This document shows positions 9,634-59,062 of a stretch of 64,000 bases of DNA, one piece after another. A model generated the notes under the pieces. It was not told the DNA's origin and made no database searches. It saw only the letters and a list, made by a program, of their open reading frames with translations. This stretch comes from Marinicella sp. (lineage in GTDB: Bacteria > Pseudomonadota > Gammaproteobacteria > Xanthomonadales > Marinicellaceae). The stretch covers positions 1,760,001-1,824,000 of the forward strand of contig OZ246001.1 in assembly GCA_965230295.1 (NCBI GenBank). The letters are read 5' to 3'. Numbering within the stretch: the first letter of the stretch is position 1; each line of letters starts with the position of its first letter. The position numbers and the translations under genes are program-made.

Positions 9634-10164
9634 ATGATCATGAAGAATGTGTATGTATTGATCACACTGTTACTGCTGGCGCAGCCTTTGAGTGCACAAT
9701 TTCCACCATTAGAAATCAATTTGGATCAAGTGGAAGCTTCGGTTAATGGCTTGGCAGAGGCCTCCCTTCGCGCCGGCACCAATTGGCAAAACATCACCGA
9801 AATCAGAGGCAGCATCATTTTTGATCCAATGGTTGTTGATGAACCGGTGTTGATCTTTTGGGGCCTCTCTAACCCGGGCGGCGCTTTGATTCAGGACCAA
9901 GGTGGAGGCGTGTTGACCTACCAGTGGGAATCGTTGATTTCCATTGGCCCCACATTGAACCCGGGAGATGTCGTATTCACTTTACAGTTTGAAGTAACTG
10001 GCGGTGTTGGCAGTGCCACACCATTGGATTTCAGCAGTACTCCTGAACCACTGTTTTGGGCCAATGGATTCGGATGGTCAGGGAACAACCACTCGATCAG
10101 CAATGGATCAGTCACGATCGTGGTCGGTGATGATTTGATTTTCAAATCGGACTTTGACCCATAA
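9634..10164 (+). CDS. Secreted cohesin-like beta-sandwich protein with C-terminal DLIFxxDFD tag
   Basis: Signal peptide ending PLSA; IIFDP, FTLQFEV, PLDFS, NGSVTI resemble a cohesin fold; ends GDDLIFKSDFDP. Confidence 0.65.
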   Translation: MIMKNVYVLITLLLLAQPLSAQFPPLEINLDQVEASVNGLAEASLRAGTNWQNITEIRGSIIFDPMVVDEPVLIFWGLSNPGGALIQDQGGGVLTYQWESLISIGPTLNPGDVVFTLQFEVTGGVGSATPLDFSSTPEPLFWANGFGWSGNNHSISNGSVTIVVGDDLIFKSDFDP

Positions 10165-10190
10165 AAAAGGGCTCTGAAAGAGCCCTCATT
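10163..10190. terminator. Bidirectional intrinsic terminator
   Basis: AAAAAA-GGGCTCT-GAA-AGAGCCC-TCATTT between convergent genes. Confidence 0.85.
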
Positions 10191-10207
10191 TTGGAGTTGT
10201 TGTCTGT

Positions 10208-10954
10208 TTACAGGTTGAAGCTGAACCAGATGCCGAAATCACCGTCACCATGTCGCCAACCATCGTGGTATGGGTAGTAGGTGTAGTAGTCACGGTAGAA
10301 ATACTCATCGTGGTAATCCATACACCACATGCCTTCATGCCAGTGGCCATAACCATATCCAGGTCGATCAAAATAGTGGCCCAGGCCCCGCAATGGGCGA
10401 TAGCGGTAGTAATCATCATAATACACGTTGTAGTTATAAAAGTGGCGGTAATGGTTGCGCAAGTGCTTGCGGTACTTCTTCATGCGTTTTTTCCACTTTT
10501 TGTAGTGCTTTTTCGGCTTGTAATAATTGTGGCTTATGTACCCGTGGTTGTTGTAACCGTAATATCGGTTGTTGCGGTTATATCCATGGCTGTTGTAATG
10601 GCGGTTGCGGTTATCGAAATGCCGGTTGTTGCGGTAATCTCCATTGAAGCCATGGTGTCGGTGCTTGTTTGAATGGCGTTGACCGTAAGCGTGCCTGTTG
10701 TTGTAGCCATGCTTGTTTTGATAACCATTGTTGTGGCCGTGTTTATGTCTGCGGGTTTCTTGACGCGCACTGTGTGCACCCTTGACATGTTTTTGACCAC
10801 CGCCACGATAAGCGTGTTTGTTGTGGTTATGTGAGTATTGTTTGTTGTGATTTTGGCGGTGCTTATTGTGTCCACCGTCTCTGGATCGGTCAGCCAATGC
10901 AGATACACTGAAAACCAGAGCTGTTAATGTGAGGTATGTTTTAAAAGATTTCAT
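10208..10954 (-). CDS. Secreted low-complexity His/Asn/Tyr/Arg-rich protein
   Basis: RBS AGGAG, signal peptide ending SALA, H/N/Y/R/G-rich body, aromatic C-terminus GDFGIWFSFNL. Confidence 0.8.
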   Translation of the reverse strand: MKSFKTYLTLTALVFSVSALADRSRDGGHNKHRQNHNKQYSHNHNKHAYRGGGQKHVKGAHSARQETRRHKHGHNNGYQNKHGYNNRHAYGQRHSNKHRHHGFNGDYRNNRHFDNRNRHYNSHGYNRNNRYYGYNNHGYISHNYYKPKKHYKKWKKRMKKYRKHLRNHYRHFYNYNVYYDDYYRYRPLRGLGHYFDRPGYGYGHWHEGMWCMDYHDEYFYRDYYTYYPYHDGWRHGDGDFGIWFSFNL

Positions 10955-11000
10955 AATTAAATCTCCTGTTGTTACTGTGAGTCCCAATTTACGGGTCTAG

Positions 11001-11018
11001 ACTGAATCAAAACTGAAT
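11001..11018. promoter_or_regulatory. Direct repeat ACTGAAT-N4-ACTGAAT, OmpR/PhoB-type regulator site candidate
   Basis: 7-bp repeat at 11-bp period in the divergent intergenic region. Confidence 0.45.
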
Positions 11019-11132
11019 GTTATGGAGCTGTTCAGATAGCGTTAAGATATGGAAACCAGTGGAATGTCATATTTTGTGGTGAAATGGTTGTGCTGTTGCT
11101 ACAATCATTGCCTGATAAAATCTCGAATAGGC

Positions 11133-12614
11133 ATGAAATTTATTTTACTGATGGCCATATTTTTGGCCCCAAGCTCATGGGCAAACCCTGAACTACATAA
11201 CAAGAAACTGGACGAGTTACTGATCACCAATGCGATGGTCGTGGTGGGCGTGGGGACACCTGCTGAAGGCCCGTATGACATTCATATTAAGAATGGATTG
11301 ATCCACAAAATGACCAGGTCCAAAGAAGGTGCCAAGGTCAGAGAATTGGAGATTCAACACCTGGATGTCGAAGGTGCTTATGTATTGCCAGGTTTCATCA
11401 ACATGCATGCCCACAGCATGTATGAAAGATCTGAGATAGAAATGGCACAACCTTATCAGCATTATTTATGGCTGGCCAGTGGCATCACCACCATCAGGGA
11501 CTTGGGCAGTGATTTGGAAGAAACCCTAAAAAACAGAGAACAAAGTGCCAAGCATGAAATCATTGCGCCTCGGGTATTTGCTTATCCTGCCATTTGGGGC
11601 AACCACAGCGATGCAGATTTAAAAGAAAAAATAAAGGCATTCAAAAAACAAGGTGTTGATGGTTTGAAGTTTGGCATGATGGACAAACAAACATTCATGA
11701 CGGCATCTGAACTGGCCAATGATAACCGGTTGAAAGTGGCCAATCATGTCGGGGTGGAAGACATGTCTGCATGGGATAACATGGTGGCAGGTACCACCAG
11801 CATTGAACACTGGTATGGTGTTCCGGATGCCGCATTAAAAGGGGTGCAAAAGTTTCCGGCAGACATGAATTATTCGAATGAATTGCACCGTTTTCGTTAT
11901 GCCGGCCGGTTGTGGCGTGAAGCGGATGCAGAAAAGCTGGATGGCGTGCTCCAGGGTTTGGTGGATGCTGGGGTGGCCTGGGACCCAACTTTGGTTATTT
12001 ATGAGGCTTCCAGAGATTTACAACGGGCCATTTCTTCACCTTGGTTCAAAGATTATTTGCACCCTGGGTTGGAAATGTTTTTCCAACCCAGTGAGGATTC
12101 ACACGGTTCTTTTTTTTGGGGTTGGACATCAACCGATGAAACCTACTGGAAAAACAACTACCAGATTTGGTTTAAGGCCTTGCGCGATTTTGCCGATAAA
12201 GGTGGCATCATAACCACGGGAGAAGATGCCGGATTCATTTATCAATTGTTTGGTTTTGGATACCTTCGAGAATTACAGTTGCATCAGGAAGCAGGCTTCC
12301 ATCCACTGGAGGTGATCAAGCATGCCACAGTTAATTCAGCTCATGTGTTGGGGCAAGGGAAACAACTGGGTCAAGTGCGCATCGGATATACCGCTGATTT
12401 GGTGATTGTGAATGGCAACCCTTTGGCTGATTTGTCGGTGCTGTTGCCCAGAAACATCAAACCATTGACCGGCGATGAAAGTACCGGCGGCATTGTCTGG
12501 ACATTAAAAGATGGCATCCCTTACCATGCCCCAACCATGCTTAAAGCGGTCAGAGAAATGGTGCGAAAAGCCAGAAAGGACAACCCGATTAATTACTTGG
12601 TGGAGGCAGAATGA
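11133..12614 (+). CDS. Secreted amidohydrolase family protein
   Basis: Signal peptide, PGFINMHAH metal site, GITTIRDLG, SIEH, ADLVIVNGNP. Confidence 0.9.
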   Translation: MKFILLMAIFLAPSSWANPELHNKKLDELLITNAMVVVGVGTPAEGPYDIHIKNGLIHKMTRSKEGAKVRELEIQHLDVEGAYVLPGFINMHAHSMYERSEIEMAQPYQHYLWLASGITTIRDLGSDLEETLKNREQSAKHEIIAPRVFAYPAIWGNHSDADLKEKIKAFKKQGVDGLKFGMMDKQTFMTASELANDNRLKVANHVGVEDMSAWDNMVAGTTSIEHWYGVPDAALKGVQKFPADMNYSNELHRFRYAGRLWREADAEKLDGVLQGLVDAGVAWDPTLVIYEASRDLQRAISSPWFKDYLHPGLEMFFQPSEDSHGSFFWGWTSTDETYWKNNYQIWFKALRDFADKGGIITTGEDAGFIYQLFGFGYLRELQLHQEAGFHPLEVIKHATVNSAHVLGQGKQLGQVRIGYTADLVIVNGNPLADLSVLLPRNIKPLTGDESTGGIVWTLKDGIPYHAPTMLKAVREMVRKARKDNPINYLVEAE

Positions 12615-13030
12615 AATACCTTCACACCATGGTTCGGGTCAGTGACCTGTCGGCATCGTTGGAATTCTATGTGAACCAATTAGGCCTGGTTGAACACAGC
12701 CGAAGGGATGTAGAAGCCGGTCGCTTCACTCTGGTGTTTTTACATGCGCCAGGTGATGAGTCTGCCATGGTGGAGTTGACCCATAATTGGGATGAAAGCG
12801 GGTATACAGAAGGCCGAAACTTTGGACATTTGGCTTATTCGGTGGAGAACATTTATGAATTCTGTCAGCACTTGATGGATCAAGGCGTAATCATCAATCG
12901 ACCGCCTCGAGATGGCCGCATGGCATTTATACGCAGCCCTGATAACATTTCTATTGAGTTGTTGCAGCAAGGCGATGCCTTACCCGTTCAGGAACCTTGG
13001 CAGTCGATGGAAAATAAGGGCAGTTGGTGA
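12611..13030 (+). CDS. gloA: Lactoylglutathione lyase (glyoxalase I, VOC family)
   Basis: YLHTMVRV, ELTHNWD, FGHLAY, FIRSPDNISIELL. Confidence 0.88.
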   Translation: MKYLHTMVRVSDLSASLEFYVNQLGLVEHSRRDVEAGRFTLVFLHAPGDESAMVELTHNWDESGYTEGRNFGHLAYSVENIYEFCQHLMDQGVIINRPPRDGRMAFIRSPDNISIELLQQGDALPVQEPWQSMENKGSW

Positions 13031-13408
13031 TTAGCCCAGTAAATTTTGGTATAAGATCACACCCCAGACCAGTGCCACAATCAACAAGGCCATAAACACG
13101 GCTGCAGAACCCATGTCTTTGGCCCGTCCGGCCAGTTCGTGCCTTTCTTCACCACAAACCAGATCCACCACAGCTTCAATGGCTGAATTGATGATTTCCA
13201 CCAACATCACCAACAACCATGAGCCAACCAACATGATCAGTTGGGTGCCAGATGCTGCCAACCAAACGGCACAAGGCAACAAAACGATGCTCAAATAAAC
13301 TTCCATGCGGAAGGAAGCTTCTTCCTGGTAAGTGGCTTTCAGGCCTTTCAAGGTCCATTGAAAGGCCCGATAAATTTCTTTGGGTCCTCGAATGCCAGAA
13401 TCAGGCAT
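13031..13408 (-). CDS. dgkA: Diacylglycerol kinase
   Basis: [34 protein letters not shown]. Confidence 0.95.
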
Positions 13409-14852
13409 TGATTTTATACACCACGTTGGGTTCTTTCACTGCTTTGACTTCGTCCATGCGTCTTACAGGTGTGGTATAAGGTGCTTGTTTTAATGTGTCG
13501 ATGTCGTCACTGGCTTGAGCCAACACGTTGGCCATGGCTTCAACAAAAGCATCGATGGATTGTTTTGATTCAGTTTCTGTGGGTTCAATCAACAAACATT
13601 CAGCCACCAATAAGGGGAAATAAATGGTGGGTGCATGCATGTCTTGGTCCAACAATGCTTTGGCCAAGTCACTGGCGGTCAAGCCCAGGTCTTTGGCTTG
13701 TTTTTTCAGGGTAACAATAAACTCGTGACTGGCACGGCGGTTTTTAAACGCCAAATCAAAACCCACGGCCTCCAGACGTTTCATTAAATAGTTGGCGTTC
13801 AAAGTTGCAAATTCAGATATGCGTTGCATGCCCTCACGCCCATTGAGTAAGGCATAGACATAGGCACGTAAATTAACGCCAGCGTTGCCGGCAAAGGTTG
13901 ACAGCTGGCCAATGGTTTTCGGGGCTTCTTGTTCAGATACAAAATAATACTGACCGTCTTTTTTTCCCACGTAAGGAATCGGCATATAAGGCAGTAAACG
14001 CTCGCTAACGCCAATGGCACCAGATCCAGGACCTCCGCCACCATGTGGTGTAGAAAATGTTTTATGCAGGTTCATGTGGATCACATCAAAGCCCATGATG
14101 CCAGGGTTGGTTTTACCCAAAATGGCATTCAAATTGGCGCCATCGTAATACAGTAAACCGCCTGCAGCATGTACTTTATCGGCGATGACTTTGATTTTGC
14201 TTTCAAATACACCCAGTGTAGATGGGTTGGTCAACATGATGCCAGCTGTGTGTGGTCCCAGTGCGGCATCCAAGGCATCCATGTCAACATTACCATCTTC
14301 ATCTGTGCGAATTTCTTTGACTTTATAACCACACATGATGGCGGTGGCCGGGTTGGTCCCATGTGCCGCATCTGGTACGATGATTTCTCGCCGTTCAAAA
14401 TCTTGGCGGTCATCATGGTAAGCCTTGATCATGGCCACCCCGGAAAATTCACCTTGAGCACCTGCCATGGGTGTTAATGAAACACCTTTCATGTTGGTCA
14501 CAGCTTGTAAGATTTGTTGTAAGTGATACATACATGCCAGGTATCCTTGAGACAAACTGGCATGGGCCAATGGGTGGCGCGCCAGAAATTCATCTTTCAT
14601 GGCCAATGAATTACAGGCCCTGGGATTGTATTTCATGGTACAAGAACCCAAGGGGTAAAAGTTGGTATCGATGGAAAAGTTCTTCTGACTCAGTTGGGTG
14701 TAATGTCTGACCACATCTAATTCGCTGGCTTGTGGCATGCCTAAACGAGAACCTCTTTGGTATTGTTCTGGTATGAGGTGTGAGACATCAACTTCATTGG
14801 GAGATTGTGCGGTGGCAGTTCTGCCGGCTTTGGACTTTTCGAAAATCAACAT
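13401..14852 (-). CDS. gcvPB: Glycine dehydrogenase (decarboxylating) subunit 2
   Basis: [43 protein letters not shown]; 483 aa. Confidence 0.96.
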
Positions 14853-14862
14853 GATTCAGCCT

Positions 14863-16923
14863 TTAAAAATCATAGTAAAAAGATAAGTGGTAGTTTCTAC
14901 CTGGTGCATCTAAACCGGAAGCATGTTCGCGGTATTTTTTATTGAAAATATTTTCAACACCCAGTCTTACCTGGCCATTGATGCTGTGTTTCCAGGTGAA
15001 GTGCGTATCATATACCACAAAACCACCCGTGCCAAATGGATTGATGCGTGCATCACTTAAATCACGGGCACTGAGTCGGTCTTGGGTGTTGGCATAGCGA
15101 ACCTGAGACCTCATGTCCCAACGGTCACTGAGGTCTTGTTGATACCCTACAACACCAAACGCAGGTGGTATCCGGTCAGCCGGTCCAGTACCTTCAGAGG
15201 TTTCTTCCGTACCATGGGTGTAGGTGATGTTGGTAAATAAATGCCCACCATTGTCAAAATAGTAGTTCAGCTCAGCTTCCAATCCGTATATATCGACTTC
15301 ATTGATGTTTTGTGATTGCACCACATCCAGGCCATCAGCTGTGACTTCGCCGGTTTCAACCGATGCAATCACATCCTGGTATCTGGAAACAAAGGCCACC
15401 ACTTCAGCTTGCCATCCATTGCCAGCATGTTTATAACCAATGTCCAGTGAAATGACAGATTCAGGTTCTAGGCTTGGATTGATGACATTAAAACGGTTGC
15501 CTGAGCGTTCACCCACCTGGCCCAAGTCGAAAATATTGGGTGGTCTGAAGCCGCGACCAATGTTGGCAAAGACGCGATCTGAGTCATTGATTTTGTATAA
15601 CCAGCTGGCGTGCCATGTGAGGTCAGTGAGGCTCAATTGATCATTATCAATATCTGGGCTGTTCAGGTCTATGTCATAATCACTGAATCGGACACCGGTG
15701 GTGAATTCATGATCGCCGTTGTATTGATGCCAGTCGGCAAACACCGCAAATTGTCGCATTGAAGAGTCATCTGGATAGCGTGAAGCCCTGGGCACATCTG
15801 TCCCATCGGCCAACACCCTTTGACGGGCACTTGAAATGGTGTCTATATAGGAATCAAAGCCATAGACCAAAAGACTGTCGTCATCCAATGCTTTGTTCCA
15901 GTCTGCTTGTAAAGTAAACAGGTCACTGTGGTTTTGCTCGGTGTCAGTCCGGCTACCTGACAATGGGATGCTGTAACGGTTATCGGTGATTTTTTGGAAT
16001 GACAAGTGGTAGTTAGCCATGTCATACCAATCAGTTGGCGAAGCCGTTGTGTACTTCAAATGTGCAAATTGTCGCTCATTGGGTTGGAACAAGTAGACCT
16101 GTGACTCAGGTTCTGTTTCACCAAACCCGGCCACCAAATTATCAACCCGGGGTGTGGCTGGTTGGTGGGTGTATTGTAGGTCGAATATCCAGTTGGAAGT
16201 GTTCGATGTGTTGAACACCCATTTGTTGTTGAACGATCGGGAGGTATAGGCGGTGAATGGGATGGTTTCGCCAGAGCCAGTGGTGCGTTGCCCAATGTCT
16301 TGATAACTGAGGCCGAATGTGGATGCAATTTTATCGTTGCCAAAATCACCACCAATGTGACTGATCCACTTTTCATCGGCACTGTCCCATGAGCTGAAAA
16401 CCTGACCAGTCATGCTCCATTCACTGCTGTAAAACTCCGGCGTGTGGGTCAAGACATTGACCACACCACCCAGGGCGTCACCGCCATAAAGAACAGAACT
16501 GGGCCCTCTGACCACTTCAATTTGTGAAGTCATGAATGAATCCACCAGGGCCAGGTATTGATTCGGCGCGTTGCGGAAAAAAGCTGTGTTAACGCGCATG
16601 CCGTCAACCAAGTGAACATTGCCAGATCCTTTCAGGCCACGGATGATCGGGATGGCCTGACCTGGGGTGGTTTGTTGGATATAGACGCCTGACTCCTGAC
16701 GCAACAGATCAGGCAGTAAAGTATTGGGTTTGTTCTTGATTTCATCACGGGTAACCACGGAAACCGCTGTGGCTGTGTCATTGGTGGCGGTGGCGGTTTT
16801 GCTGGCCGTCACTTGAAGTGGCGCCAGTGATTCTACACTTTCATCTAGATTGACATCAGGCGCAGGGTTTTCTTGTGCCAGGCTGGCGGTAGCCACAATC
16901 AGCAATACAATACTCAGTTTCAT
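14863..16923 (-). CDS. TonB-dependent outer membrane receptor
   Basis: LQVTAS TonB box, IEVVRGPSSVLYGGDALGGVVN plug, ENIFNKKY, terminal Phe. Confidence 0.95.
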   Translation of the reverse strand: MKLSIVLLIVATASLAQENPAPDVNLDESVESLAPLQVTASKTATATNDTATAVSVVTRDEIKNKPNTLLPDLLRQESGVYIQQTTPGQAIPIIRGLKGSGNVHLVDGMRVNTAFFRNAPNQYLALVDSFMTSQIEVVRGPSSVLYGGDALGGVVNVLTHTPEFYSSEWSMTGQVFSSWDSADEKWISHIGGDFGNDKIASTFGLSYQDIGQRTTGSGETIPFTAYTSRSFNNKWVFNTSNTSNWIFDLQYTHQPATPRVDNLVAGFGETEPESQVYLFQPNERQFAHLKYTTASPTDWYDMANYHLSFQKITDNRYSIPLSGSRTDTEQNHSDLFTLQADWNKALDDDSLLVYGFDSYIDTISSARQRVLADGTDVPRASRYPDDSSMRQFAVFADWHQYNGDHEFTTGVRFSDYDIDLNSPDIDNDQLSLTDLTWHASWLYKINDSDRVFANIGRGFRPPNIFDLGQVGERSGNRFNVINPSLEPESVISLDIGYKHAGNGWQAEVVAFVSRYQDVIASVETGEVTADGLDVVQSQNINEVDIYGLEAELNYYFDNGGHLFTNITYTHGTEETSEGTGPADRIPPAFGVVGYQQDLSDRWDMRSQVRYANTQDRLSARDLSDARINPFGTGGFVVYDTHFTWKHSINGQVRLGVENIFNKKYREHASGLDAPGRNYHLSFYYDF

Positions 16924-16982
16924 GGGTCAATCTTTGGTCAAAGGGTGAGTAATTTACTATGGGTTCAGGCCAGAATCAACCA

Positions 16983-17001
16983 ACAAATGATAATGATAAG
17001 C
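16983..17001. promoter_or_regulatory. Fur box candidate upstream of the TonB-dependent receptor
   Basis: ACAAATGATAATGATAAGC, 13/19 by hand count to GATAATGATAATCATTATC, ~60 bp upstream of the ATG. Confidence 0.55.
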
Positions 17002-17026
17002 AACAAGTTTTAAACCGAGGCCTTTT

Positions 17027-17043
17027 CTGAACAGAAGCTGAAC
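17027..17043. promoter_or_regulatory. Direct repeat CTGAAC-N5-CTGAAC
   Basis: Same CTGAA core and 11-bp period as 11001-11018. Confidence 0.35.
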
Positions 17044-17075
17044 AAAAGACCAAGGACTTTCTATTTAAATGACCT

Positions 17076-29870: not shown

Positions 29871-31982
29871 ATGGTCCGGACATTGTATTTACAGATAATC
29901 GTCATTAGCATGCTTGGTTGGTCTTTTGCCAGCCAGTCTCAATCGAAGGTGTCTGGTTGGCAGGTGGATACTGTGCACGGTCCTTCACAACAAGGCATTG
30001 CTGACAGCATAGCATTGGATTTCAACCAGGATGGTCGATTGGATGTGGCTTCAGTGTCATACAACGATGGTCACTTAAGGCTGTATTTAAATCAAGGCAA
30101 CCTCGTTTTTGATCAACAGATCATCAGCACAGATTTATTTGGCGCATTTCGAATCGTCAAAGCAGATTTGAATGACGACAATGAATTTGACTTTATAGTC
30201 CCATCGATAGAGACTTCTGAAATCATTGCCGTGATGAGTGGTCCTGATGGACATGAAAAGCAAGTCATTGCTTCAGGTGTGTTGGTTCCCAGTGATGCCC
30301 AGGTTGGGTTTCTCAATGACGATGATTTATTGGATGTGGCAAGCACTTCATTTCAGGAGGGATTGCTGCTGGCACATCTACAACAAATCGATGGCAGTTT
30401 TGAAACCGAAATCATTTCAGATGTGCCTGTAAACCCCAGAAAAATGGTGCTTGAAGATTTCGATAACGATGGCTTGGTTGATGTGTTGTTGGCCTCATCA
30501 GGTGACGATTCAATCAGGCTTTTCACAAAGCAGCAAAATGATGGGTATGTTGAGACATTGATCAGCAACCAAGCCCTGGGTACCAGGTACACGGAATCTT
30601 GTGACGTCAATGGCGACATGTTACCTGATTTTGTGGTTTCAGCATCAGACGCAAACACCATCTGGGTCTATACAAATTTGGGGTCTAACACATTCAGTCA
30701 AACAGAGCTGGACAATGATGTGGCAGGGGTTCGTTCCTTGTACTGTGTTGACATTGATGATGACGGTCAGCAAGAATTACTCAACTTAGCAGCAGTCACC
30801 GGGGTGATTTATGCCCATGAATTGAAGGGCCCAGTCAACAGGGTTGAAGTGGCCAGTAACAGAGATGGGTATGTCAATGTCAAAGCAGGGGTGTTTACAG
30901 GTGATCAAACAAGCTTATTAACCCAAACGTTTTTTGATAACAGAAATTTGTTGTATGACCCGCTATCAACCAATCAAGAACAAGTGGTTTGGGAAGATTT
31001 TCCAGATGGGGCCAGTGATGTCAAAATGGGAGACATCAACAATGACGGGGTGGAAGATTTGGTGGCATCCAGTTTCAGAGACGATCGGGTGCAATGGTAT
31101 GATGGCACAACCTTTCAACATCACATCATAGCTGAAAATATAGATGGGGCCGCAGAGGTTTTGGTGGTTGATCTGGATGATGACGGATGGGTGGATGTGT
31201 TGTCAGCCGCTTCTTTTGCCAACACTTTTTATTGGCATCGAAATACCGGCAATGAGGTGTTCAATACCTTGGTCATTTTCGACGATGCGCGTTTTGCCAA
31301 TGGATTGGCTGTCGCTGATCTTGATGAAGATGGCCAATTAGATGTGGTCGGGACTTCAGGTTCTGATGACAGTGTCAGGTTGTTTACCCGCAATGGCGTG
31401 TCATTCACTGTACAGTTGCTTGATGACCAAAATGATGCCCCCAATGAGGTCAAAATATATGATATGGACGGAGACATGGATCTTGATTTGGTGGTTCCAT
31501 ATACGTTCTCTGACGAGTTGGTGATGTATGAAAATTTGGGAGGTGCTTTTAGCAGCCAAGTTCTGGCATCAAACCTGGACAGGATTGACTCCACCGCAAT
31601 AACCGACATCAACAATGATGGGTTCATGGATATATTGGCCAGTGTTGCTGGAGATGATGTGGTGGTTAAGTTGATCAATCAAGCCAATGGTGTATTCGTG
31701 CAAGAACCATTGATTCAAGACATTGAAACGCCTAAGAGAATCAAGTTCAATTCAGCCACCCCATACAATTTTTTACAAACCAACTTTTTCCCGAATGGTG
31801 TTGAAGTTGCTTCCATTTATAACTTAGGCGGGGTTCCCGGTGATTATGGTGACTTGTTGTTCGAGTTCAGCAATGCATTGTCCAACTCCAGTCACGTTTT
31901 TTTGGCTTCTTTGCAAGATTTGATTTATGCTGATGGATTTCAAACACAACAAGCCTTCACTCTTGATATTGACCATCCATAA
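29871..31982 (+). CDS. Secreted FG-GAP/VCBS repeat beta-propeller protein with near-terminal DLIYADGFQ tag
   Basis: Signal peptide; many DxxxDGxxD Ca-binding repeats (DFNQDGRLD, DINNDGVED, DLDEDGQLD etc.). Confidence 0.9.
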   Translation: MVRTLYLQIIVISMLGWSFASQSQSKVSGWQVDTVHGPSQQGIADSIALDFNQDGRLDVASVSYNDGHLRLYLNQGNLVFDQQIISTDLFGAFRIVKADLNDDNEFDFIVPSIETSEIIAVMSGPDGHEKQVIASGVLVPSDAQVGFLNDDDLLDVASTSFQEGLLLAHLQQIDGSFETEIISDVPVNPRKMVLEDFDNDGLVDVLLASSGDDSIRLFTKQQNDGYVETLISNQALGTRYTESCDVNGDMLPDFVVSASDANTIWVYTNLGSNTFSQTELDNDVAGVRSLYCVDIDDDGQQELLNLAAVTGVIYAHELKGPVNRVEVASNRDGYVNVKAGVFTGDQTSLLTQTFFDNRNLLYDPLSTNQEQVVWEDFPDGASDVKMGDINNDGVEDLVASSFRDDRVQWYDGTTFQHHIIAENIDGAAEVLVVDLDDDGWVDVLSAASFANTFYWHRNTGNEVFNTLVIFDDARFANGLAVADLDEDGQLDVVGTSGSDDSVRLFTRNGVSFTVQLLDDQNDAPNEVKIYDMDGDMDLDLVVPYTFSDELVMYENLGGAFSSQVLASNLDRIDSTAITDINNDGFMDILASVAGDDVVVKLINQANGVFVQEPLIQDIETPKRIKFNSATPYNFLQTNFFPNGVEVASIYNLGGVPGDYGDLLFEFSNALSNSSHVFLASLQDLIYADGFQTQQAFTLDIDHP

Positions 31983-47934: not shown

Positions 47935-48026
47935 TCTGGAGCAGAGTGTCAGCTTTAATTTGACTTTTCTTGGGGTTTTTTTCTTCATCGGTTACAATCA
48001 ATGAATTCATTTTCTCATGACTTCTG

Positions 48027-50699: not shown

Positions 50700-50719
50700 A
50701 GGGATTGCTACAGGGCCGC

Positions 50720-50935: not shown

Positions 50936-50979
50936 GATACAGCTTTGCAAAAACGCCAAACCGGCTTCACAACAGTAAA

Positions 50980-51006
50980 CGTCATTTCCGCGAAGGCGGG
51001 AATCTA
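50980..51006. repeat. REP-like palindrome of the GTCATTCCCGCGAAGGCGGGAATC class
   Basis: CGTCATTTCCGCGAAGGCGGGAATCTA; ATT[T/C]CC-N8-GGGAAT hairpin. Confidence 0.65.
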
Positions 51007-51522: not shown

Positions 51523-51819
51523 ATGTTTTTTAAAAGGTGGAAAGTTTATGATCCTCGTTGGTTAGCAGAAGACTGCCAATACGCTTTTTCTGAATACCCT
51601 TGGCTTGAAGATGCATTGAAGCCCTGTTGCAAAGCCAGGAAAAGAAGCGCTTTTTATACGTATTTTGAAAAGCACAGCAGACCGAATGAACCATCGTCAA
51701 ATTGGCAAATTCAAGAAAGCATCCATATAGAGGGGACCCGAGAAGGTGACATTATTCTTGATATCATCAAAGAAAACCGGGTTGGTGGTATTGAGTTTAT
51801 TTCACGCTTGATGAAGTAG
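51523..51819 (+). CDS. Small hypothetical protein
   Basis: AAGGAG upstream of ATG 51523; protein-like composition (EYPWL...GDIILDIIKENRVGGIEF). Confidence 0.6.
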   Translation: MFFKRWKVYDPRWLAEDCQYAFSEYPWLEDALKPCCKARKRSAFYTYFEKHSRPNEPSSNWQIQESIHIEGTREGDIILDIIKENRVGGIEFISRLMK

Positions 51820-51999
51820 CTTGGAAGGATGGTCTGGGATTCCTATCCAAATCTATAGGCTGTGCTGATTTCAGTACTTTCCGGCCAGAAACGGACGACA
51901 TCCTTCGTGCGATGTTGTGTATTATTCTCAATTTTGAAGTCGGTTTTTGATAAAGAGAATGACAGAAAAACTGAAAGCAAAGGGTTGACAAGTTGTTTT

Positions 52000-52212
52000 T
52001 TATACACAGTGTGAAATGGTTTTGTCAAAAAACAAGCCCTTAGCCAAATTCATTTGTTTTGTACATTCAAAAAAAGGCGTAAACAACTGATTTATAAAGA
52101 TTGTGCTTGGTGGTTAAAGTTTAACCAAGGCGTGTGCGGTATAAGTCTCACTTGCAAAAGAAGCAAAAAAATCAAAGTTATGAACAAAGTTATCCACAAT
52201 TTTTGTGGATAA
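52000..52212. promoter_or_regulatory. DnaA-box cluster with IHF site (DARS-like)
   Basis: TTATACACA 52000-52008; IHF consensus AATCAGTTGTTTA (- strand, 52080-52092); TTATGAACA 52178-52186; TTATCCACA 52190-52198; TGTGGATAA 52204-52212. Confidence 0.75.
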
Positions 52213-52260
52213 CTGAAAAGTGTCCAGTGTTGTACAAGCTTACCTGGGTTACTGCGGTGT

Positions 52261-53061
52261 TTAAAAGGTGAAGTACATCCGCAAGGCCAACACAACAATC
52301 AGCCCTGCAAACAGGCGTTTTAACAATGGAATGGGTAAGCGATGGGTTAAATGTGCCCCATAAGAAGTGGTGATTAGGCTGCCAGCCGTGATCGCTAAAG
52401 TGGCTGGCCAATAAACATAGCCCAACACCTGATCTGGTAAATGGACTTGGCCAATGCCTTTGATGATAAACACAAAGCAACCAGCCATGGCCAATGGAAG
52501 ACCAATGCTGGCAGCCGTAGCAATGGCTTTTTTGATGTTGATGCGATGCCAACTCAAGTAAGGTACTGTTAATGAACCGCCACCAATGGCAATCAAGGCG
52601 GACAAAAATCCAATGACAAACCCAACCGGAAGCAGCTCAACGGTCTTGATTTTATCGCTGGCATGGGTCTTGGGCTTGAAGCCAAAAATCATTTGGACTG
52701 CCACAGCCACCATCAGGATCATGAAGATCAAAGCGATGGATTTTGATGGTATTTGAATGACGTAATAGGTGGCCAATCCACTGCCAAGTAAAACAGCTGG
52801 ACTGATTTGGTATGTGATGGGCCACAAAATGGCTTGGTGTTGTTGATGGGTTCTGATACTGATGATGGCATTGATCACTATACAAGACATGGAGGTGGCC
52901 AAGGCCAAATGGACCACCACTTCGGGGCTCATTCCTAGCCACAAAAAATAGGCAGTTAAGGCAGGTACCATGATGGCGCCACCCCCGATACCAAATAAAC
53001 CAGCAAAAAAACCAACCACCATTCCCAGTAAGATCAAAATAATGATACTGGTTACAACCAT
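52261..53061 (-). CDS. Sulfite exporter TauE/SafE family protein
   Basis: GLFGIGGGAIMVP, ALATS, AIGGGSLTVP, GYVYWPA; multi-TM. Confidence 0.9.
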   Translation of the reverse strand: MVVTSIIILILLGMVVGFFAGLFGIGGGAIMVPALTAYFLWLGMSPEVVVHLALATSMSCIVINAIISIRTHQQHQAILWPITYQISPAVLLGSGLATYYVIQIPSKSIALIFMILMVAVAVQMIFGFKPKTHASDKIKTVELLPVGFVIGFLSALIAIGGGSLTVPYLSWHRINIKKAIATAASIGLPLAMAGCFVFIIKGIGQVHLPDQVLGYVYWPATLAITAGSLITTSYGAHLTHRLPIPLLKRLFAGLIVVLALRMYFTF

Positions 53062-53089
53062 GACTCAGATAACAATCGATGCAGAATGG

Positions 53090-54556
53090 TCAGCGCCGCC
53101 GCCCAAACAGCGTCTTCCAAATGGCATTGACCGCTTTGGTGGTTAATCGCCGCTGAAGAGATTTGCCCAGCTTTGTTGCAAAAGAATCTCGTGGTCGACC
53201 TGGTCTGCGTTTTGGCTTGGCTGCCTCTGCTTCCAGTTTGGCTTGTTCCTTGGCCTTTTGTTCAGCCATTTCCTGTTGTCGCTTTTGCAGTTTTTCATGG
53301 GCCGATTCACGGTCAAGACCCGTGTCATATTTCCCACCCACAGGGGACCGTTCCATCACCAATTTTCGTTCGGCATCGGTTGCAGGGCCCATGCGACATC
53401 GAGGGGGGGCTATTTTGACTCGATCCACCACAGTGGGAGCACCTTTCTCTTCCAAAGTAGACACCAAAGCTTCACCCACGCCCAATTCAGTAATCACGTC
53501 AGCGGTATTAAAGTTGGGGTTGGGTCGGAAGGAATCTGCCACAGCCCTGATGACTTTTTTATCTTTTGGTGTGTAAGCCCGCAGGGCATGTTGAATTTTA
53601 TTACCCAGCTGACCCAATATGTCTTCAGGTATGTCACCAGGTGATTGGGTACAGAAATAAACCCCAACGCCTTTAGACCGAATCAATCTGGCCACTTGTT
53701 CAATGCGCTTCAGTACTTCTTTGGGTGAATCTTCAAAGATCAAGTGTGCTTCATCAAAAAACAACACCAGTTTTGGTACCGGGAGGTCACCGACTTCTGG
53801 CAAGGTTTCAAACAATTCAGTCATTAACCACAGCAAAAATGAGGCATACAATTGTGGTTTCATCATCAAGTCCCTGGACTCCATGATGCTGATGATGCCG
53901 TTACCAGACATGTCTTGGCGCATCAAGTCTTTCAATGCCAAAGCTGGCTCACCGAACAGCTGGTCAGCACTCTGTGACTCCAAATTCAACAATCGACGTT
54001 GGATGGCACCAATGGATGCGTTGGTGATGCGCCCGTATTCGGCAGAAATGCTTTTGTGATGCTCTCCCATGAAATGCAGCAAAGATTTCAAATCCTTCAA
54101 GTCCAACAACGGCATTTGATTTTCTTCAGCATACCTAAAAGCCACCGCAACCACGCCTTCTTGTACATCGGACAGTTCCAACAATCGGCTTAAATACATC
54201 GGGCCAATTTCTTCTATGGTGGTCCTCACTGGGTGGCCGTGTTTCTTAAATATGTCCCAGAATATGGTTGGAGACCCTTCGTAACGGTAGTTTTTGATGT
54301 GGAGTTTTTTGGCCCGGTTGTCTAAAAACTCTTTTTGTTTTCCAGCTTGGGACAAGCCAGAAACGTCGCCCTTGATGTCAGTAACAAAGACCGGGACACC
54401 CAGCTCTGAAAAATTTTCTGCCAACACTTGCAAAGTAACTGTTTTACCAGTTCCTGTGGCGCCTGTGATTAAGCCATGACGATTGGCAAAATGACCTAAA
54501 ATCATGGCTGGCTTTTCACCATGGCCGAAATGTAAAACTTTCTGTTCTGTGCTCAT
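53090..54556 (-). CDS. HerA-like ATPase (DUF853/YjgR family)
   Basis: NRHGLITGATGTGKT, FFDEAH, LIRSKGVGVYF, QHALRA. Confidence 0.92.
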   Translation of the reverse strand: MSTEQKVLHFGHGEKPAMILGHFANRHGLITGATGTGKTVTLQVLAENFSELGVPVFVTDIKGDVSGLSQAGKQKEFLDNRAKKLHIKNYRYEGSPTIFWDIFKKHGHPVRTTIEEIGPMYLSRLLELSDVQEGVVAVAFRYAEENQMPLLDLKDLKSLLHFMGEHHKSISAEYGRITNASIGAIQRRLLNLESQSADQLFGEPALALKDLMRQDMSGNGIISIMESRDLMMKPQLYASFLLWLMTELFETLPEVGDLPVPKLVLFFDEAHLIFEDSPKEVLKRIEQVARLIRSKGVGVYFCTQSPGDIPEDILGQLGNKIQHALRAYTPKDKKVIRAVADSFRPNPNFNTADVITELGVGEALVSTLEEKGAPTVVDRVKIAPPRCRMGPATDAERKLVMERSPVGGKYDTGLDRESAHEKLQKRQQEMAEQKAKEQAKLEAEAAKPKRRPGRPRDSFATKLGKSLQRRLTTKAVNAIWKTLFGRRR

Positions 54557-54560
54557 TTGA

Positions 54561-55937
54561 TTATGATGTTGTGTATTGGCCGTGTAGCCAGTTAAAAATG
54601 GCAACCATGCCGAGGGCCTCTCCACCTTCAGTACCACCCGTGCGATCACCGAAATTCCAGCCGTAGGTGTCAACATGGACCCATGCTATTTCGGGTGCTA
54701 CGAAATGTTCCAAAAACAAGGCAGCTGTGATGCAACCTGCTTGAGGTATCGAACCGGTGTTTGACAAGTCAGCAATGCTGGATTTGATGTATTTTTTGTA
54801 ACTTTGTTGCAACGGCAAAGGCCAAGTCTCATCATGGGTCAATTGGCCACTGGCAAAGATGCCATCACTGATTTCTTTGCGGTTGGAAAAAATGGGCGTG
54901 ACCGTTGGTCCCATGGCCACCCTGGCTGCACCGGTTAGGGTGGCAAAGTCAATGATCAATTCTGGTTTAGATTCACTGGCATAAGTCAATGCATCTGCCA
55001 ATATGACGCGGCCTTCAGCGTCGGTATGGCCTATTTCTACAGTTTGACCTGATCGGGTTTGAGCCACGTCGCCTTGTCGATAAGCATTGCCTGACACAGC
55101 ATTTTCGACGGTTGGGATCAACACCTGTAAACAAACCGGTAATTGGTGATCTATGATCATTTGGGCCAGCCCAAAGACATGTGCACCACCACCCATGTCT
55201 TTTTTCATCCAGCGCATGAATTGAGCGGCTTTCATGTTGTTGCCACCGGTATCAAAACAAACCCCTTTGCCCACCAGTGAAATTTTCGGGTGTGCCTCAT
55301 TGCCCCAGTTCAATTCTATTAACCTGGGAGCTTTGTGACTGGCTCGACCAACGATATGAATGGAAGGAAAGTTTTCGGTCAACAATGCTTCACCAATAAT
55401 CTCGGTAAAAGTGGTGTGATTTTGTTCTGCAAAGGATTCAGCAAAAGCAGACATCTCGGTGGGTCCCATGTCATCTGCGGGTGTATTGATCAAATCCCGA
55501 ACCATCGAAGTGGCGTGGATGGCAGACAGTTCGTAATGATGGTCTTTGATGTTGTTAACCACCAGAACAGCACATTCTTTGGTTTTGATGTAGCGATCAA
55601 ATTGGTAGCTGCCAAATCCCCAGCCTAAAATGATGGCGGTGGTGATTTCTGCCGTTTCGCTTTCCACATGATAATGTCCCAGCGGTATTTTTTTTATCGC
55701 ATGGGCAAAGCTGTATGGGCTCAAATCATCCGCAATGGTCAGGTAAATTTTGGCAATGGAACCATCGGCCTTGCGATCAACCAGAAAATTACCTGCCTTT
55801 TTACCCAACTGCTGTTGTTCTGCAGAGGACTTCAAAAAGTCATTCTGTGCCTCTAGCCAAGTATCATAGGTGCCTTTGATGATTGGGATAACCGGCGTGG
55901 TTTGGCCTTCATATTCCGAGCTGATGTGATGTGTCAT
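54561..55937 (-). CDS. M17 leucyl aminopeptidase family protein
   Basis: VGKGVCFDTGG, MKKDMGG, TDAEGR, DFATLTGA. Confidence 0.94.
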   Translation of the reverse strand: MTHHISSEYEGQTTPVIPIIKGTYDTWLEAQNDFLKSSAEQQQLGKKAGNFLVDRKADGSIAKIYLTIADDLSPYSFAHAIKKIPLGHYHVESETAEITTAIILGWGFGSYQFDRYIKTKECAVLVVNNIKDHHYELSAIHATSMVRDLINTPADDMGPTEMSAFAESFAEQNHTTFTEIIGEALLTENFPSIHIVGRASHKAPRLIELNWGNEAHPKISLVGKGVCFDTGGNNMKAAQFMRWMKKDMGGGAHVFGLAQMIIDHQLPVCLQVLIPTVENAVSGNAYRQGDVAQTRSGQTVEIGHTDAEGRVILADALTYASESKPELIIDFATLTGAARVAMGPTVTPIFSNRKEISDGIFASGQLTHDETWPLPLQQSYKKYIKSSIADLSNTGSIPQAGCITAALFLEHFVAPEIAWVHVDTYGWNFGDRTGGTEGGEALGMVAIFNWLHGQYTTS

Positions 55938-56028
55938 GTCAAAATGTATGTAATGAGAATAGAATGATTATACTCAAGGCTTATTTGAATATCGACACCG
56001 TTGTCAATTGTTCACATAACGAGGTATT

Positions 56029-56502
56029 TTATTTTGTTTGGTAGATCATTTCTTGGTGAGGAATCAAGTCTTCCAGATAGTATTGTCCGGTACTGACAAA
56101 CCCCAAGTTAACATAAAACTGATGCAAGTAAGATTGAGCAGATATTTTGAGCGGGTGCTCAGGAAAACGATCAAGGCATGCAAGGATGGCCGCTTTCATT
56201 AAGGCCCCGCCGACTTTTTCATGCCTCACTTGTTCGGCAACCACCACTCGGCCAATGCTGATGTACTCGTTGTTATTTTGTTCAGGTGTCAGGATGCGCG
56301 CATAGGCCACCAAATCACCATTGTCAGCTTTTTTGAACAGGTGTAAAGCGTCCTCATCAAGTCCATCAAGGTCCAAATAGGGGCAGTCCTGTTCAAGTAC
56401 AAAAACGGCATTTCTGAGTTGCATCAGCTGATACAACTCATGGAGGCTCAGTTCGGCAAATTTGCGCAATGAAAATTCTGAATCATTCAAAGTCATCAGC
56501 AA
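56029..56502 (-). CDS. elaA: ElaA-like GNAT acetyltransferase
   Basis: LRNAVFVLEQDCPYLDLDG, IGRVVV, ISAQSYL..FY, YLEDLIPH. Confidence 0.88.
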   Translation of the reverse strand: MLMTLNDSEFSLRKFAELSLHELYQLMQLRNAVFVLEQDCPYLDLDGLDEDALHLFKKADNGDLVAYARILTPEQNNNEYISIGRVVVAEQVRHEKVGGALMKAAILACLDRFPEHPLKISAQSYLHQFYVNLGFVSTGQYYLEDLIPHQEMIYQTK

Positions 56503-59062
56503 AAATCAAATCATTGTCAAGCTCAAGCGGCAGGGGCCAAACATAGGCACCGCGGGATCGGGTGAATACAGCCAAGGTGGTGGCACCTCGATCAATGGTC
56601 ATGTCCCATATCATCACTGAAGGCAAACCGTTGTCAAATCTGAACCATACTGGCTCATCCACATCCACATTTTCGGTATAGTATAAGCCCCAATCGGTGC
56701 CGGCAAAAACCATGCCGGGGACGTTTGGGTTCACCATCACACTGTCAACTGGAATGTTGGGTAAGTTACCTGACTTATTTTTCCATTCAAAACTGCTGCA
56801 ATCACTGTTACAACTGACTTCAAATAAGTGGCCGGGTGTGCTTGGGGTGTTTTGATCAAACCCTCCAACAGCGGCATAGCCTTTGGTGGCAATGGAACCA
56901 TCAGTGACGACATCTAAAACGGGTCTGTTAGGCAGCACAGTGTTGCCACCAGTCACATCCACCCAATTGGCCGAGTTGGCAGAACCCATGCCCATATCAA
57001 AGCCATAATAAACGTTGCCATCATTGGTTCCCACAATAGCCACAGTGGCATCAGAAATACCATAATGCATTTGATTGATGATGGATCGATTCCCCAACAC
57101 CCCTTTGGTTAAATCAGGGCTGTTGACGTACCAGGCAGAATTATTCAGCCCACCAGTGGTGGTCTCCCAGATTCGGTAAGTACCAGCCATCAATTGGTCA
57201 CATGATCCACCGGTACAATCGTGCTTGTTTAAATGGAAGGGGAAAATGAAGGGTACCCGGTTATCATTTGACCAAGGATTGGCAAAGGAGGAGTAACTGC
57301 CCAGGGGGCCATTGGTACTGATTCTCATGTTGCCGAATTGTGATTCAACATAAACCCGTTGTCCATTGATGGGTTCAATGGTTGCATAGATACCGTCACC
57401 ACCATTGACACGGGTCCATGGTTTGGCTTCAAAGGGTTCTGAGTTGGTGTCCCATAAGGCCACAGAAGAGCCGTTGTCCTGGGCACCGCCAACAGCCACC
57501 CGATCGGTGCTATTAACAAAATCTGCACTGATGTCACCAGAATAAAACTCAATGGTGTTGATGGTGTTGTTAAGTTGGGTATAAACAATGTCTCTTGCGT
57601 TGGCTTCGCTGGCATTGCTGGTGTAATACACACCGCCATCATTGCCCACCAACAATTGATTTGGGTCGCCTGCCACATAAGCGCGGGCATGGTGATCAAC
57701 ATGGACAAAATCGCCAGCATTGGGGCCACCGGCATAGCCACATGTGCTGTTGGTGAAGGTATCTCCACCATTACTGGACTTGAACAAATCCACTGCCGAT
57801 AAAAACAACTCATCTGAATTGGATGGAGAGACACTCATGCCCATGTCATACCAGGCTTGGGTGCCACTGTCGTCACAACCAATGAAGTCATTGGTATCGG
57901 CCACTTGTGTCCAGCTGGTACCACCATTGGTGGTTTTCCATACCCCTTTAACAGCTCGGGTACTGACATCTGCCACTTGTGCATACAACACTTCGTTGTC
58001 TGATGGAGCCATGGTCAAATCAATGCGACCTAAATCATTGGCAGGATAGGGTGTGCCTTCGCCGGTTCCAGCAGGCCAACCATTGGTGCTGGTTGTGACC
58101 AAGGTCCAAGTGGGGCAACCTGTGGCAGGGAAATCTGCTTTATAAATGCCATTGGCACCGTTTTGACTGAGGTCGGCTTGTACAGTGGTGTTGTGTCCTC
58201 GGGTTCCAATGGCAGCATAGATTTCTCCAGAGGCATTGACCTCCATCCCAGTGATGTCTTGACGCTGGGTATCAAATGAGTTGGTCAAACATGCCTCGGT
58301 CCAATCAGTGCCGTTGTTGAATGAAAAGAACAGTCCCGTTTTGGTGCCCACCACTATTTGAGTAGAATCTAACGGGTTGGTTCTTACCCGGCCAATGGCT
58401 TGGTATTGAGGAAACTCACCAACGGGTTGATCACGATAAGGGGCAAATTCCGCTTCACCCAGCACTTCCCATGTATTGCCTGCATCAACAGATCGCAACA
58501 ACCCGGCACTACCAAATGAGTAAGATCCATAGCGCAAGTCTCCAGTCCCGGCATAAATGATGTTTGGGTCATTGGGGTCAAGGTGCAAATCACCAATGGC
58601 AGCACCATTGACGCCAGTGGTGTCGGTGACATTGGCCCAGGTGGTTTGATCATCACAACAGTCTGTGGTTTTCCAAACACCACCACCATCAACACCAGCA
58701 TAGGCGATGGTTTCATCAGTGGGGTGACTGACGATCACATTAACCCGACCAGAGTAGGCTGTACCCGCTGGGTTGCCCAAAGGTTTTGGGCCCAGTGCGA
58801 TAAAAGCATTGGGATCAAGGCCTTTAAAGTTTGCTGCATTCCGGTTCATACGAGCCGGTTGTTTTTTGCGGTTTTTCTCGTGTGATACACGTGCTGAAAC
58901 CAACCACTCCTGGCTGTATTGGAAGGTTGGGTAACTGTATCTGGTGGCCCAATAATCACCCCTAACAGGTTTGTAATAATCTTCCATATCACTGTGGTCA
59001 TTATCACTGCTACAAGCTGCCATCAGTAAGCTGGCGCACATTAAACTAAAGATTTTTTTCAT
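56483..59062 (-). CDS. Lipoprotein with BNR/Asp-box (sortilin/xyloglucanase-like) beta-propellers and C-terminal DLIFADDFE tag
   Basis: Lipobox MAAC, SGRV, GGVWKT, SVDAGNTW, TTNGGTSW, HVDHH, GNDGGVY, GGAQDNG, GTDWG, TRSRGAY. Confidence 0.85.
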   Translation of the reverse strand: MKKIFSLMCASLLMAACSSDNDHSDMEDYYKPVRGDYWATRYSYPTFQYSQEWLVSARVSHEKNRKKQPARMNRNAANFKGLDPNAFIALGPKPLGNPAGTAYSGRVNVIVSHPTDETIAYAGVDGGGVWKTTDCCDDQTTWANVTDTTGVNGAAIGDLHLDPNDPNIIYAGTGDLRYGSYSFGSAGLLRSVDAGNTWEVLGEAEFAPYRDQPVGEFPQYQAIGRVRTNPLDSTQIVVGTKTGLFFSFNNGTDWTEACLTNSFDTQRQDITGMEVNASGEIYAAIGTRGHNTTVQADLSQNGANGIYKADFPATGCPTWTLVTTSTNGWPAGTGEGTPYPANDLGRIDLTMAPSDNEVLYAQVADVSTRAVKGVWKTTNGGTSWTQVADTNDFIGCDDSGTQAWYDMGMSVSPSNSDELFLSAVDLFKSSNGGDTFTNSTCGYAGGPNAGDFVHVDHHARAYVAGDPNQLLVGNDGGVYYTSNASEANARDIVYTQLNNTINTIEFYSGDISADFVNSTDRVAVGGAQDNGSSVALWDTNSEPFEAKPWTRVNGGDGIYATIEPINGQRVYVESQFGNMRISTNGPLGSYSSFANPWSNDNRVPFIFPFHLNKHDCTGGSCDQLMAGTYRIWETTTGGLNNSAWYVNSPDLTKGVLGNRSIINQMHYGISDATVAIVGTNDGNVYYGFDMGMGSANSANWVDVTGGNTVLPNRPVLDVVTDGSIATKGYAAVGGFDQNTPSTPGHLFEVSCNSDCSSFEWKNKSGNLPNIPVDSVMVNPNVPGMVFAGTDWGLYYTENVDVDEPVWFRFDNGLPSVMIWDMTIDRGATTLAVFTRSRGAYVWPLPLELDNDLIFADDFE

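Follow-up and report, generated by a model that had tools for sequence, protein, structure and literature searches.

What does a nine-residue tail do at the end of unrelated exported proteins? The question is raised by a 64,000-nucleotide stretch of a Marinicella sp. genome (assembly GCA_965230295.1, contig OZ246001.1, positions 1,760,001 to 1,824,000; hereafter the window, with positions counted from its first letter), in which a cohesin-fold protein, an FG-GAP propeller and a BNR propeller carry closely similar sequences at or near their C-termini. The initial annotation of the window had taken these tails for a candidate undescribed sorting or anchoring signal, and translation confirms all three where it had placed them:

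9634..10164, plus strand: gene for a 176-residue exported, stand-alone cohesin-fold protein with the tag (translation, AlphaFold2, Foldseek)
10132..10158, plus strand: its tag, DLIFKSDFD, followed by one Pro and the stop (end ...VVGD-DLIFKSDFD-P-stop; translation)
29871..31982, plus strand: gene for a 703-residue exported FG-GAP/VCBS propeller protein with the tag (Pfam FG-GAP_3, 5.7e-43)
31917..31943, plus strand: its tag, DLIYADGFQ, with 12 further residues between it and the stop (translation)
56483..59062, minus strand: gene for an 859-residue BNR/Sortilin-Vps10-like propeller with a lipoprotein-type signal (..LMAAC), tagged (translation; PF15902 on homologues)
56486..56512, minus strand: its tag, DLIFADDFE, exactly C-terminal (end ...LDN-DLIFADDFE-stop; translation)

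Having traced this tag through the source genome and its relatives, we conclude that it is probably an undescribed address or docking label.

The BNR gene lies on the minus strand, and a plus-strand reading of coordinates 56483-59062 is meaningless. Pfam recognizes FG-GAP repeats in the 703-residue protein and has no match to the 176- and 859-residue proteins, nor does NCBIfam match the tail of any of the three. The AlphaFold2 model of the 176-residue protein, built from 10 sequences, is a beta-sandwich with a mean predicted local distance difference test score (pLDDT) of 76.5. All of its top Foldseek matches in the PDB are cohesins (E 2e-9, TMq 0.67), so the 'cohesin-like' label it was first given holds at the level of the fold; nine homologues of it were found. 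Its tag region, residues 166-176, is modelled as coil with pLDDT below 50. In the BNR protein (59 aligned homologues, mean pLDDT 86.9) the last predicted strand spans residues 839-843 and residues 844-859 are coil, the last block having a pLDDT of 53; the aligned homologues keep F..DGFE while the linker preceding it varies. In both window proteins that were modelled, the tag is thus predicted to lie outside the fold as low-confidence coil. The Marinicella-type orthologues of the FG-GAP protein (P0134-P0146) are also tagged, with only 0-5 residues after the tag, and the 12-residue extension of the window protein is therefore a local addition.

The tag extends far beyond the window. The source genome (label G000) is a single contig of 4,008,074 bp with 44% G+C, on which naive calling and removal of shadow open reading frames (ORFs) left a crude set of 3423 ORFs, made with no gene finder. 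The expression D.[ILVM][FYW]...F[EDQ] matches 118 times in this set, 101 of them within 15 residues of the C-terminus and 59 exactly terminal, against means of 11.25 matches overall and 0.45 near the C-terminus in 20 shuffles; at the C-termini of exported proteins the motif is enriched some 200-fold. A position-specific scoring matrix (PSSM), refined over three iterations and calibrated on shuffled tails to admit about 0.7 false matches per proteome, finds the tag within 12 residues of the stop in 139 of the 3423 ORFs (about 0.7 expected by chance), or about 1 in 25 genes of the genome. Seventy-three of these end exactly at the motif, and the remainder have 1-12 mostly polar residues after it.

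The consensus has nine residues, D-[LV]-I-F-x-[DNS]-[GD]-F-[ED], or D-[LV]-I-F-[AEK]-[DSN]-[GD]-F-[ED] in the aligned logo. The 25 residues before it show no conservation, and position -1 is linker-like, with S, P, D, N and G most frequent. Each of the 101 regex-defined tags closes with E, D or Q, and GFE, DFE, GFD and NFD are the four most frequent C-terminal tripeptides of the genome. All synonymous codons are in use within the tag, with 46% of same-residue codon pairs differing; all three stop codons follow it, and the downstream DNA shows no recurrence except T-runs. The tag is conserved as protein, not as DNA. Its codon diversity and the unconserved flanking DNA exclude an origin as a DNA repeat or mobile element. 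Searches of Pfam and NCBIfam gave no model covering the tag, and a literature search with motif strings and the topics of sorting signals, Wenzhouxiangella and Marinicella returned no description of it. The tag is real, highly abundant and uncatalogued.

Its carriers are diverse. The 101 regex-defined carriers fall into 65 blastp clusters, and Pfam, run on 45 of the 101, gave 40 families, including FG-GAP (8 members), LRR, PA, reprolysin, CotH, M14, M28, M64, S8, GSDH, beta-helix and LTD. By a crude Kyte-Doolittle test for a hydrophobic N-terminal stretch, used in place of SignalP, 119 of the 139 tagged ORFs have such an N-terminus, compared to 1467 of the 3284 other ORFs. The 20 that fail are, by eye, mostly signal-like or twin-arginine (Tat) N-termini, fragments or mis-started ORFs. 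A portable tag on unrelated exported proteins, as the initial annotation had it, is thus what the genome holds. Two tagged DUF1501 proteins have twin-arginine N-termini, one of them matched by the Pfam TAT_signal model below that model's cut-off, and a lipobox occurs in only about five tagged ORFs. Since Tat signals are among the carriers, the tag must work on folded proteins; together with the scarcity of lipoboxes, this argues that its carriers are soluble proteins able to leave the cytoplasm in folded form.

The C-terminal position of the tag is preferred, not obligatory. Eight convincing copies are internal, N-terminal or tandem, so a free carboxylate is not obligatory either. One is a tandem pair, and one directly follows the lipoprotein signal of a 2340-residue SpvB/TcdB_midN/RHS-type protein. 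Several internal copies sit at domain junctions, ahead of DUF11, a MAM-like domain or a module of about 90 residues that, to judge by its sequence, contains an acidic DxDGDG stretch and has no family match. Most internal copies precede Pro-rich linkers, with no common domain.

Some of these loci deserve a description of their own. The 2340-residue protein (G000:C1:1551084-1558106, minus strand; L165) has a lipoprotein signal, the N-terminal tag, then SpvB, FG-GAP, TcdB_midN and RHS repeats; downstream of its gene, to about position 1,546,000, runs a series of small lipoprotein-like genes resembling an immunity array, and the whole is a polymorphic-toxin locus with no obvious export partner. 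The DxDGDG module, which is dockerin/TSP3-like, follows an internal tag in two large proteins (L166, L167), and the cohesin-fold protein of the window is itself tagged, a hint that a layer of cohesin-dockerin type may be superimposed on the tag. At G000:C1:3,803,983-3,839,387 (L121, L123) lies an array of more than 12 FG-GAP paralogues, several copies of which are fragmentary; their tails frequently close with GF[DE]-C-[INM], in which a Cys and one further residue follow the tag. Two 209-residue genes (G000:C1:1286676-1287305 and 1287941-1288570) have identical first 30 residues and an atypical tail, DVIYASNFY plus one residue, and look like a recent tandem duplication.

How widely is the tag distributed? 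A strict DNA pattern (tag plus stop) matches 50 times in the source genome and 12-71 times in each of 24 other genomes of its family (f1), compared to 0-1 matches for the reversed control. The taxa of 80 listed tag loci are Marinicella, Lysobacterales metagenome-assembled genomes, Dokdonella, Tahibacter, Pseudofulvimonas, Wenzhouxiangellaceae and Rhodanobacteraceae, in agreement with the initial annotation, which named Marinicella, Dokdonella and Wenzhouxiangella-type bacteria as bearers of such tails. The general core across the order is F-x-[DN]-G-F-E-stop with a hydrophobic residue before F; in the Marinicella form D-[LV]-I is conserved as well, and D frequently takes the place of G. We surveyed the pattern F-x-[DN]-G-F-E-stop in those 121 genomes of the order with a completeness of 90% or more, the source genome being counted in f1, and found it in 81. 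It occurs in every genome of families f1 (15/15), f3 (7/7), f4 (14/14; median 34 matches, maximum 65), f5 (2/2), f6 (2/2), f9 (10/10) and f11 (14/14), in none of family f2 (0/15), in 5/14 of family f7 (genus g8, 0/9) and, at low counts, in 7/14 of family f8 and 5/14 of family f12. Among 250 genomes of the class outside the order, none has more than two matches and 21 have one or two, comparable to the reversed control (about 16 genomes by our own count). The tag is confined to one gammaproteobacterial order. In five tag-poor genomes we found no orthologue of the BNR cargo, only a weak match of 30% identity in one of the five.

What, then, do homologues of the window proteins carry in place of the tag? 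The 120 listed BNR homologues share a domain ending ..GAYVWPLP and diverge after it. Sorted by regular expression, 62 end in short GFE-type tails, 20 in a long sister tail of about 20 residues (xIFxDGFE[ST]GDTxxWSxxVP), 21 in YLP-like motifs, seven in a transmembrane (TM) helix with a basic anchor, two in dockerin-like modules (P0111, P0120) and eight in other sequences. The YLP-like ends belong to Chloroflexi and occupy the position of the tag; one of them (P0100) matches NCBIfam NF053834, ultrashort_CTERM, at 13.3 bits with a cut-off of 10. A homologue of the cohesin-fold protein with 58% identity (P0132) has a type IX secretion system (T9SS) C-terminal domain (CTD; PF18962, precomputed) where the tag would be. 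Of 119 listed rows of FG-GAP homologues, the more distant ones include 26 with a T9SS CTD (by our own count), three with a dockerin (PF00404) and ten with the long tail; among the last, several bear the source names Thermoanaerobaculia or Holophagales. The long sister form is present in 11 of the 121 genomes of the order, at 1-3 copies each, which excludes it as the local form of the tag. As known sorting and anchoring modules stand at the position of the tag in homologues, we argue by analogy that the tag may itself have a sorting or anchoring role.

We hold, with moderate confidence, that the tag is a portable label for sorting or retention after export. In this model, carriers would cross the inner membrane via Sec or Tat and then fold, leaving the tail flexible and outside the fold. 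A partner acting in trans would read the tail and direct or hold the protein at the cell surface, and passage through the outer membrane would most simply be assigned to the single canonical type II secretion system (T2SS). What is recognized would be a short exposed hairpin or strand and not the free carboxylate, and the outcome would be surface retention, a task that T9SS CTDs, dockerins, the YLP-box motif or C-terminal membrane anchors perform in other phyla. In favour of this reading, Wenzhouxiangella AB-CW3, of a sister genus, is reported to release no proteolytic activity to the medium; the authors of that study assume outer-membrane-anchored proteases and place a T2SS in the core genome shared with Marinicella (PMC7691419). 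Of the docking tag first imagined for the window, the portability and the role in sorting or anchoring, argued from the exchange of modules, have stood; in place of the single beta-strand the AlphaFold2 models give coil.

Several points weigh against this reading. The exchange of modules among homologues is an argument by analogy. A low-pLDDT AlphaFold2 coil would be equally expected of an unimportant tail, and the case rests on conservation. The ORF and signal-peptide calls are crude. The T2SS marker is near-universal in the order and neither supports nor tests the T2SS route. Finally, there are the gene neighbourhoods. They were taken as windows of 7 genes, reaching three genes to either side of each of the 101 regex-defined tagged genes, and as the ORFs of 119 8-kb loci from other genomes; across both sets the only recurrent untagged neighbours are extracytoplasmic function (ECF) sigma factors and Ser/Thr kinases bearing tetratricopeptide repeats (TPRs), and no machine recurs.

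These regulatory genes form a pattern of their own. An ECF sigma factor (PF07638) paired with a TPR-bearing Ser/Thr kinase about 900 residues long recurs next to tagged genes; in the source genome such pairs occur at L122:3355-6581 (plus strand) and nine other sites. Five of the ten sigma genes there are within three genes of a tagged gene, and matching families are found in 10-13 of the 119 loci elsewhere.

Could the secretion system itself be what reads the tail? The source genome has three secretins, in one canonical T2SS operon, in pilMNOPQ and in a Tad-like locus. The T2SS marker T2SSM_b (PF10741) is present in 38 of 41 relatives and in 119 of the 121 genomes of the order, tag-free families included, which excludes the T2SS as a discriminator of tag presence. 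Directly downstream of gspD lies the gene for a 473-residue exported protein, here called family X (G000:C1:855496-856917; L138:7499-8917, minus strand), with a normal cleavable signal peptide and the strongly conserved motifs LIYPYYTVNN, EWVVTFPTK and WDREE. Neither sequence nor profile searches found a relative of it in Pfam, NCBIfam or the PDB, and the ESM Atlas offers no more than automatically assigned names, 'cell surface protein' among them. In many genomes the gene for family X shares a contig with T2SSM_b at a distance of 4-5 kb; its place next to the T2SS is kept from family to family, and it is present in 96 of the 121 genomes. Another exported neighbour, of 420 residues, was rejected as a candidate since it is not conserved, being found in none of five test genomes.

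The distribution of family X invites the rival view that the tail is a linear T2SS secretion signal, read in the periplasm by family X, that governs passage through the outer membrane and not later retention. Across the 121 genomes, 80 have both tag and X, one has the tag alone, 16 have X alone and 24 have neither, five of the X-negative genomes being assigned from family tallies and not from individual listings; X thus occurs in 80 of 81 tag-positive genomes compared to 16 of 40 tag-negative ones. In the sole exception (G132) the T2SS gene is 3.8 kb from the contig end, and for that reason X may simply be unassembled there. Within family f12, X is found in 5/5 tag-positive and 1/9 tag-negative genomes, and outside the order both are rare, X occurring in eight of 249 genomes of the class sample, none of them tagged. 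That Tat substrates are tagged fits as well, as the T2SS moves folded proteins. Yet X is present in all 9/9 genomes of genus g8, which are tag-free, and in 13/14 of family f8, in which tags are missing or nearly so; it is therefore at best necessary and not sufficient. The co-distribution comes down to some two independent cases in which both are missing, family f2 and part of f12, and shared ancestry could explain as much. With 11 paralogues in the source genome, one of them tagged, family X looks like cargo; its ordinary signal peptide and its lack of database relatives do not help, and T2SS signals are generally held to be conformational. When X (residues 28-473; an alignment of 21 rows) and the cohesin-fold protein as cargo (residues 22-176; 10 rows) were modelled as a complex, the score was 0.00 in two runs with no controls, which counts neither for nor against binding. 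We consider a linear T2SS signal unlikely.

A broader version, in which tail, family X and T2SS together make up a surface-display pathway and a nine-residue linear peptide marks folded periplasmic proteins for T2SS-dependent export or capture, is decidedly doubtful. If true, about 4% of the proteome would use a linear cargo signal of a kind not previously linked to any type II secretion system.

The surroundings of the T2SS operon have a composition of their own. Downstream (L138:1-7418) the operon continues into a peptidyl-prolyl isomerase gene (Pfam Rotamase), followed by frames that, judged by their sequences alone, resemble an ABC-2 type transporter pair, a family-2 glycosyltransferase and a methyltransferase; together they look like O-antigen or polysaccharide export beside the secretion genes.

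Alternatively, the tail could be a processing site, at or before which an envelope enzyme cleaves and attaches the protein covalently to lipopolysaccharide, lipid or peptidoglycan, on the model of PorU with T9SS cargo or of sortases and rhombosortase with their own signals. The tail takes the position that cleaved sorting signals have in homologues, the residues before it are linker-like, and the source genome has several homologues of S41-type C-terminal-processing peptidases (5 matches in 4 open frames). Nevertheless, there is no conserved cleavage motif upstream of the tag. Extensions of 1-12 residues, tandem copies and internal copies before whole domains (DUF11, MAM-like) fit strict C-terminal transpeptidation poorly. 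Nor is a candidate enzyme co-located with the tagged genes: no enzyme recurs beside them, although no family search for sortase, exosortase or rhombosortase-type enzymes was made. We regard processing as distinctly unlikely, and still prefer a tail that is read as a label.

The same S41 homologues, and the E, D or Q that ends all 101 regex-defined tags, might suggest a stability element, an acidic aromatic end that shields proteins from tail-specific periplasmic proteases, which prefer small apolar C-termini, or else a regulated degron; this is highly improbable, as protection alone would not call for nine conserved positions, D-x-I-F among them, internal or N-terminal copies would not work, and the sorting modules at the same place in homologues would go unexplained. 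That the tail is structural, whether as the last strand of the fold, as what is left of the first strand of a downstream domain since lost, or as a strand for self-association, can scarcely be credited: a few internal copies do lie at domain junctions and the sister form (..F.DGFE[ST]GDT..W..) presumably resembles the opening strands of some jelly-roll or lectin-type domains, but AlphaFold2 leaves the tail outside the fold in 2/2 models, upstream conservation is lacking across at least 65 families, and the linkers after most internal copies lead into no common domain.

A sorting or retention label of this kind would matter beyond the window, as C-terminal sorting tags determine which proteins a bacterium displays or releases, and to our knowledge each one described to date has opened the way to a new sorting enzyme or secretion route. 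The tag, which has no membrane-spanning part, is found on some 139 proteins of one genome, among them proteases, propellers, leucine-rich repeat and beta-helix proteins and a Tc/RHS-type toxin, and is in use in most families of one order. With a simple motif one could then tell which proteins Marinicella, Wenzhouxiangella, Dokdonella and their relatives, proteolytic and predatory bacteria included, display on the surface or secrete, and the motif would provide a minimal, transplantable handle for surface display. Marinicella strains are available in culture and the tag is short, which opens the recognition of folded proteins in the final export step of a T2SS-bearing Gram-negative bacterium to direct study.

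How does the tag compare with known systems? The outer-membrane protein beta-signal ends in an aromatic residue and forms the last strand of a beta-barrel, unlike the tag, which ends in E, D or Q on soluble folds such as propellers, proteases and the cohesin fold. Very short C-terminal labels read by a receptor, with an acidic and hydrophobic or a free acidic end, are known in the extreme C-terminal motif of proteases and lipases of the type I secretion system (T1SS) and in KDEL and PTS1. T1SS substrates, however, have no N-terminal signal peptide, whereas the tagged proteins have Sec or Tat signals (119/139 by the crude test), and KDEL and PTS1 are eukaryotic and strictly dependent on a free C-terminus.

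Tripartite signals offer the same many-to-one logic: dozens of unrelated exported proteins per genome bear one C-terminal signature that is restricted to a lineage (PMC3237569, PMC1569441, PMC11980579, bioRxiv 10.1101/2023.06.07.544157). The systems compared are LPXTG/sortase, PEP-CTERM/exosortase, GlyGly-CTERM/rhombosortase, MYXO-CTERM/myxosortase and IPTL-CTERM. In these, a TM helix and a basic cluster follow the motif and the enzyme is intramembrane or membrane-bound, whereas 73 of the 139 tagged proteins end at the motif. A scan of the source genome for C-termini with a TM helix and basic residues found other proteins and none of the tagged ones. The tag has neither part and is therefore not a tripartite signal, in line with the initial annotation, which had set it apart on this ground and as far shorter than a T9SS CTD. 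The other proteins, about six, form a second, minor sorting class alongside the tag, with a PVPVP-type motif, a hydrophobic helix and a basic tail (G000:C1 3056-3868, 820214-821107, 982792-983415, 2285626-2286402, 2778439-2783760 and 3946541-3948502); we take these ends to be IPTL-CTERM-like.

The only catalogued TM-free C-terminal motif of similar size that we found is the YLP-box (NCBIfam NF053834, ultrashort_CTERM, and NF050076, sort_motif_YLP), with 10-11 positions. Its sequence is unrelated (..YLPV..P compared to DLIFxDGFE), it belongs to other phyla, and it is itself only putative. NF053834 does not match the two window tails searched, with limited sensitivity, as it recovered the control P0100 and missed two of three YLP-like controls; NF050076 has no match in the source genome.

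The closest likenesses are in function. In dockerin-cohesin systems a C-terminal module holds enzymes on a surface scaffold non-covalently, and dockerins replace the tag in some homologues. A dockerin, though, folds into a duplicated, calcium-binding loop-helix module some 60-70 residues long whose partner is of known fold, and the tag has nine residues; PF00404 matches none of the three window proteins. The T9SS type A CTD (Por_Secre_tail, PF18962/TIGR04183) is likewise a TM-free C-terminal signal on many unrelated Sec-exported proteins of one lineage, and it sits on homologues of two window proteins exactly where the tag does. PF18962 has no match on the three window proteins, no other T9SS component having been searched for. 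That domain is a folded beta-sandwich of 70-100 residues served by a known machine in Bacteroidota, compared to nine residues modelled as coil in Gammaproteobacteria. Being too short and not folded, the tag is neither a T9SS CTD nor a dockerin, yet it functions most like these two, in the sense that it replaces them in homologues.

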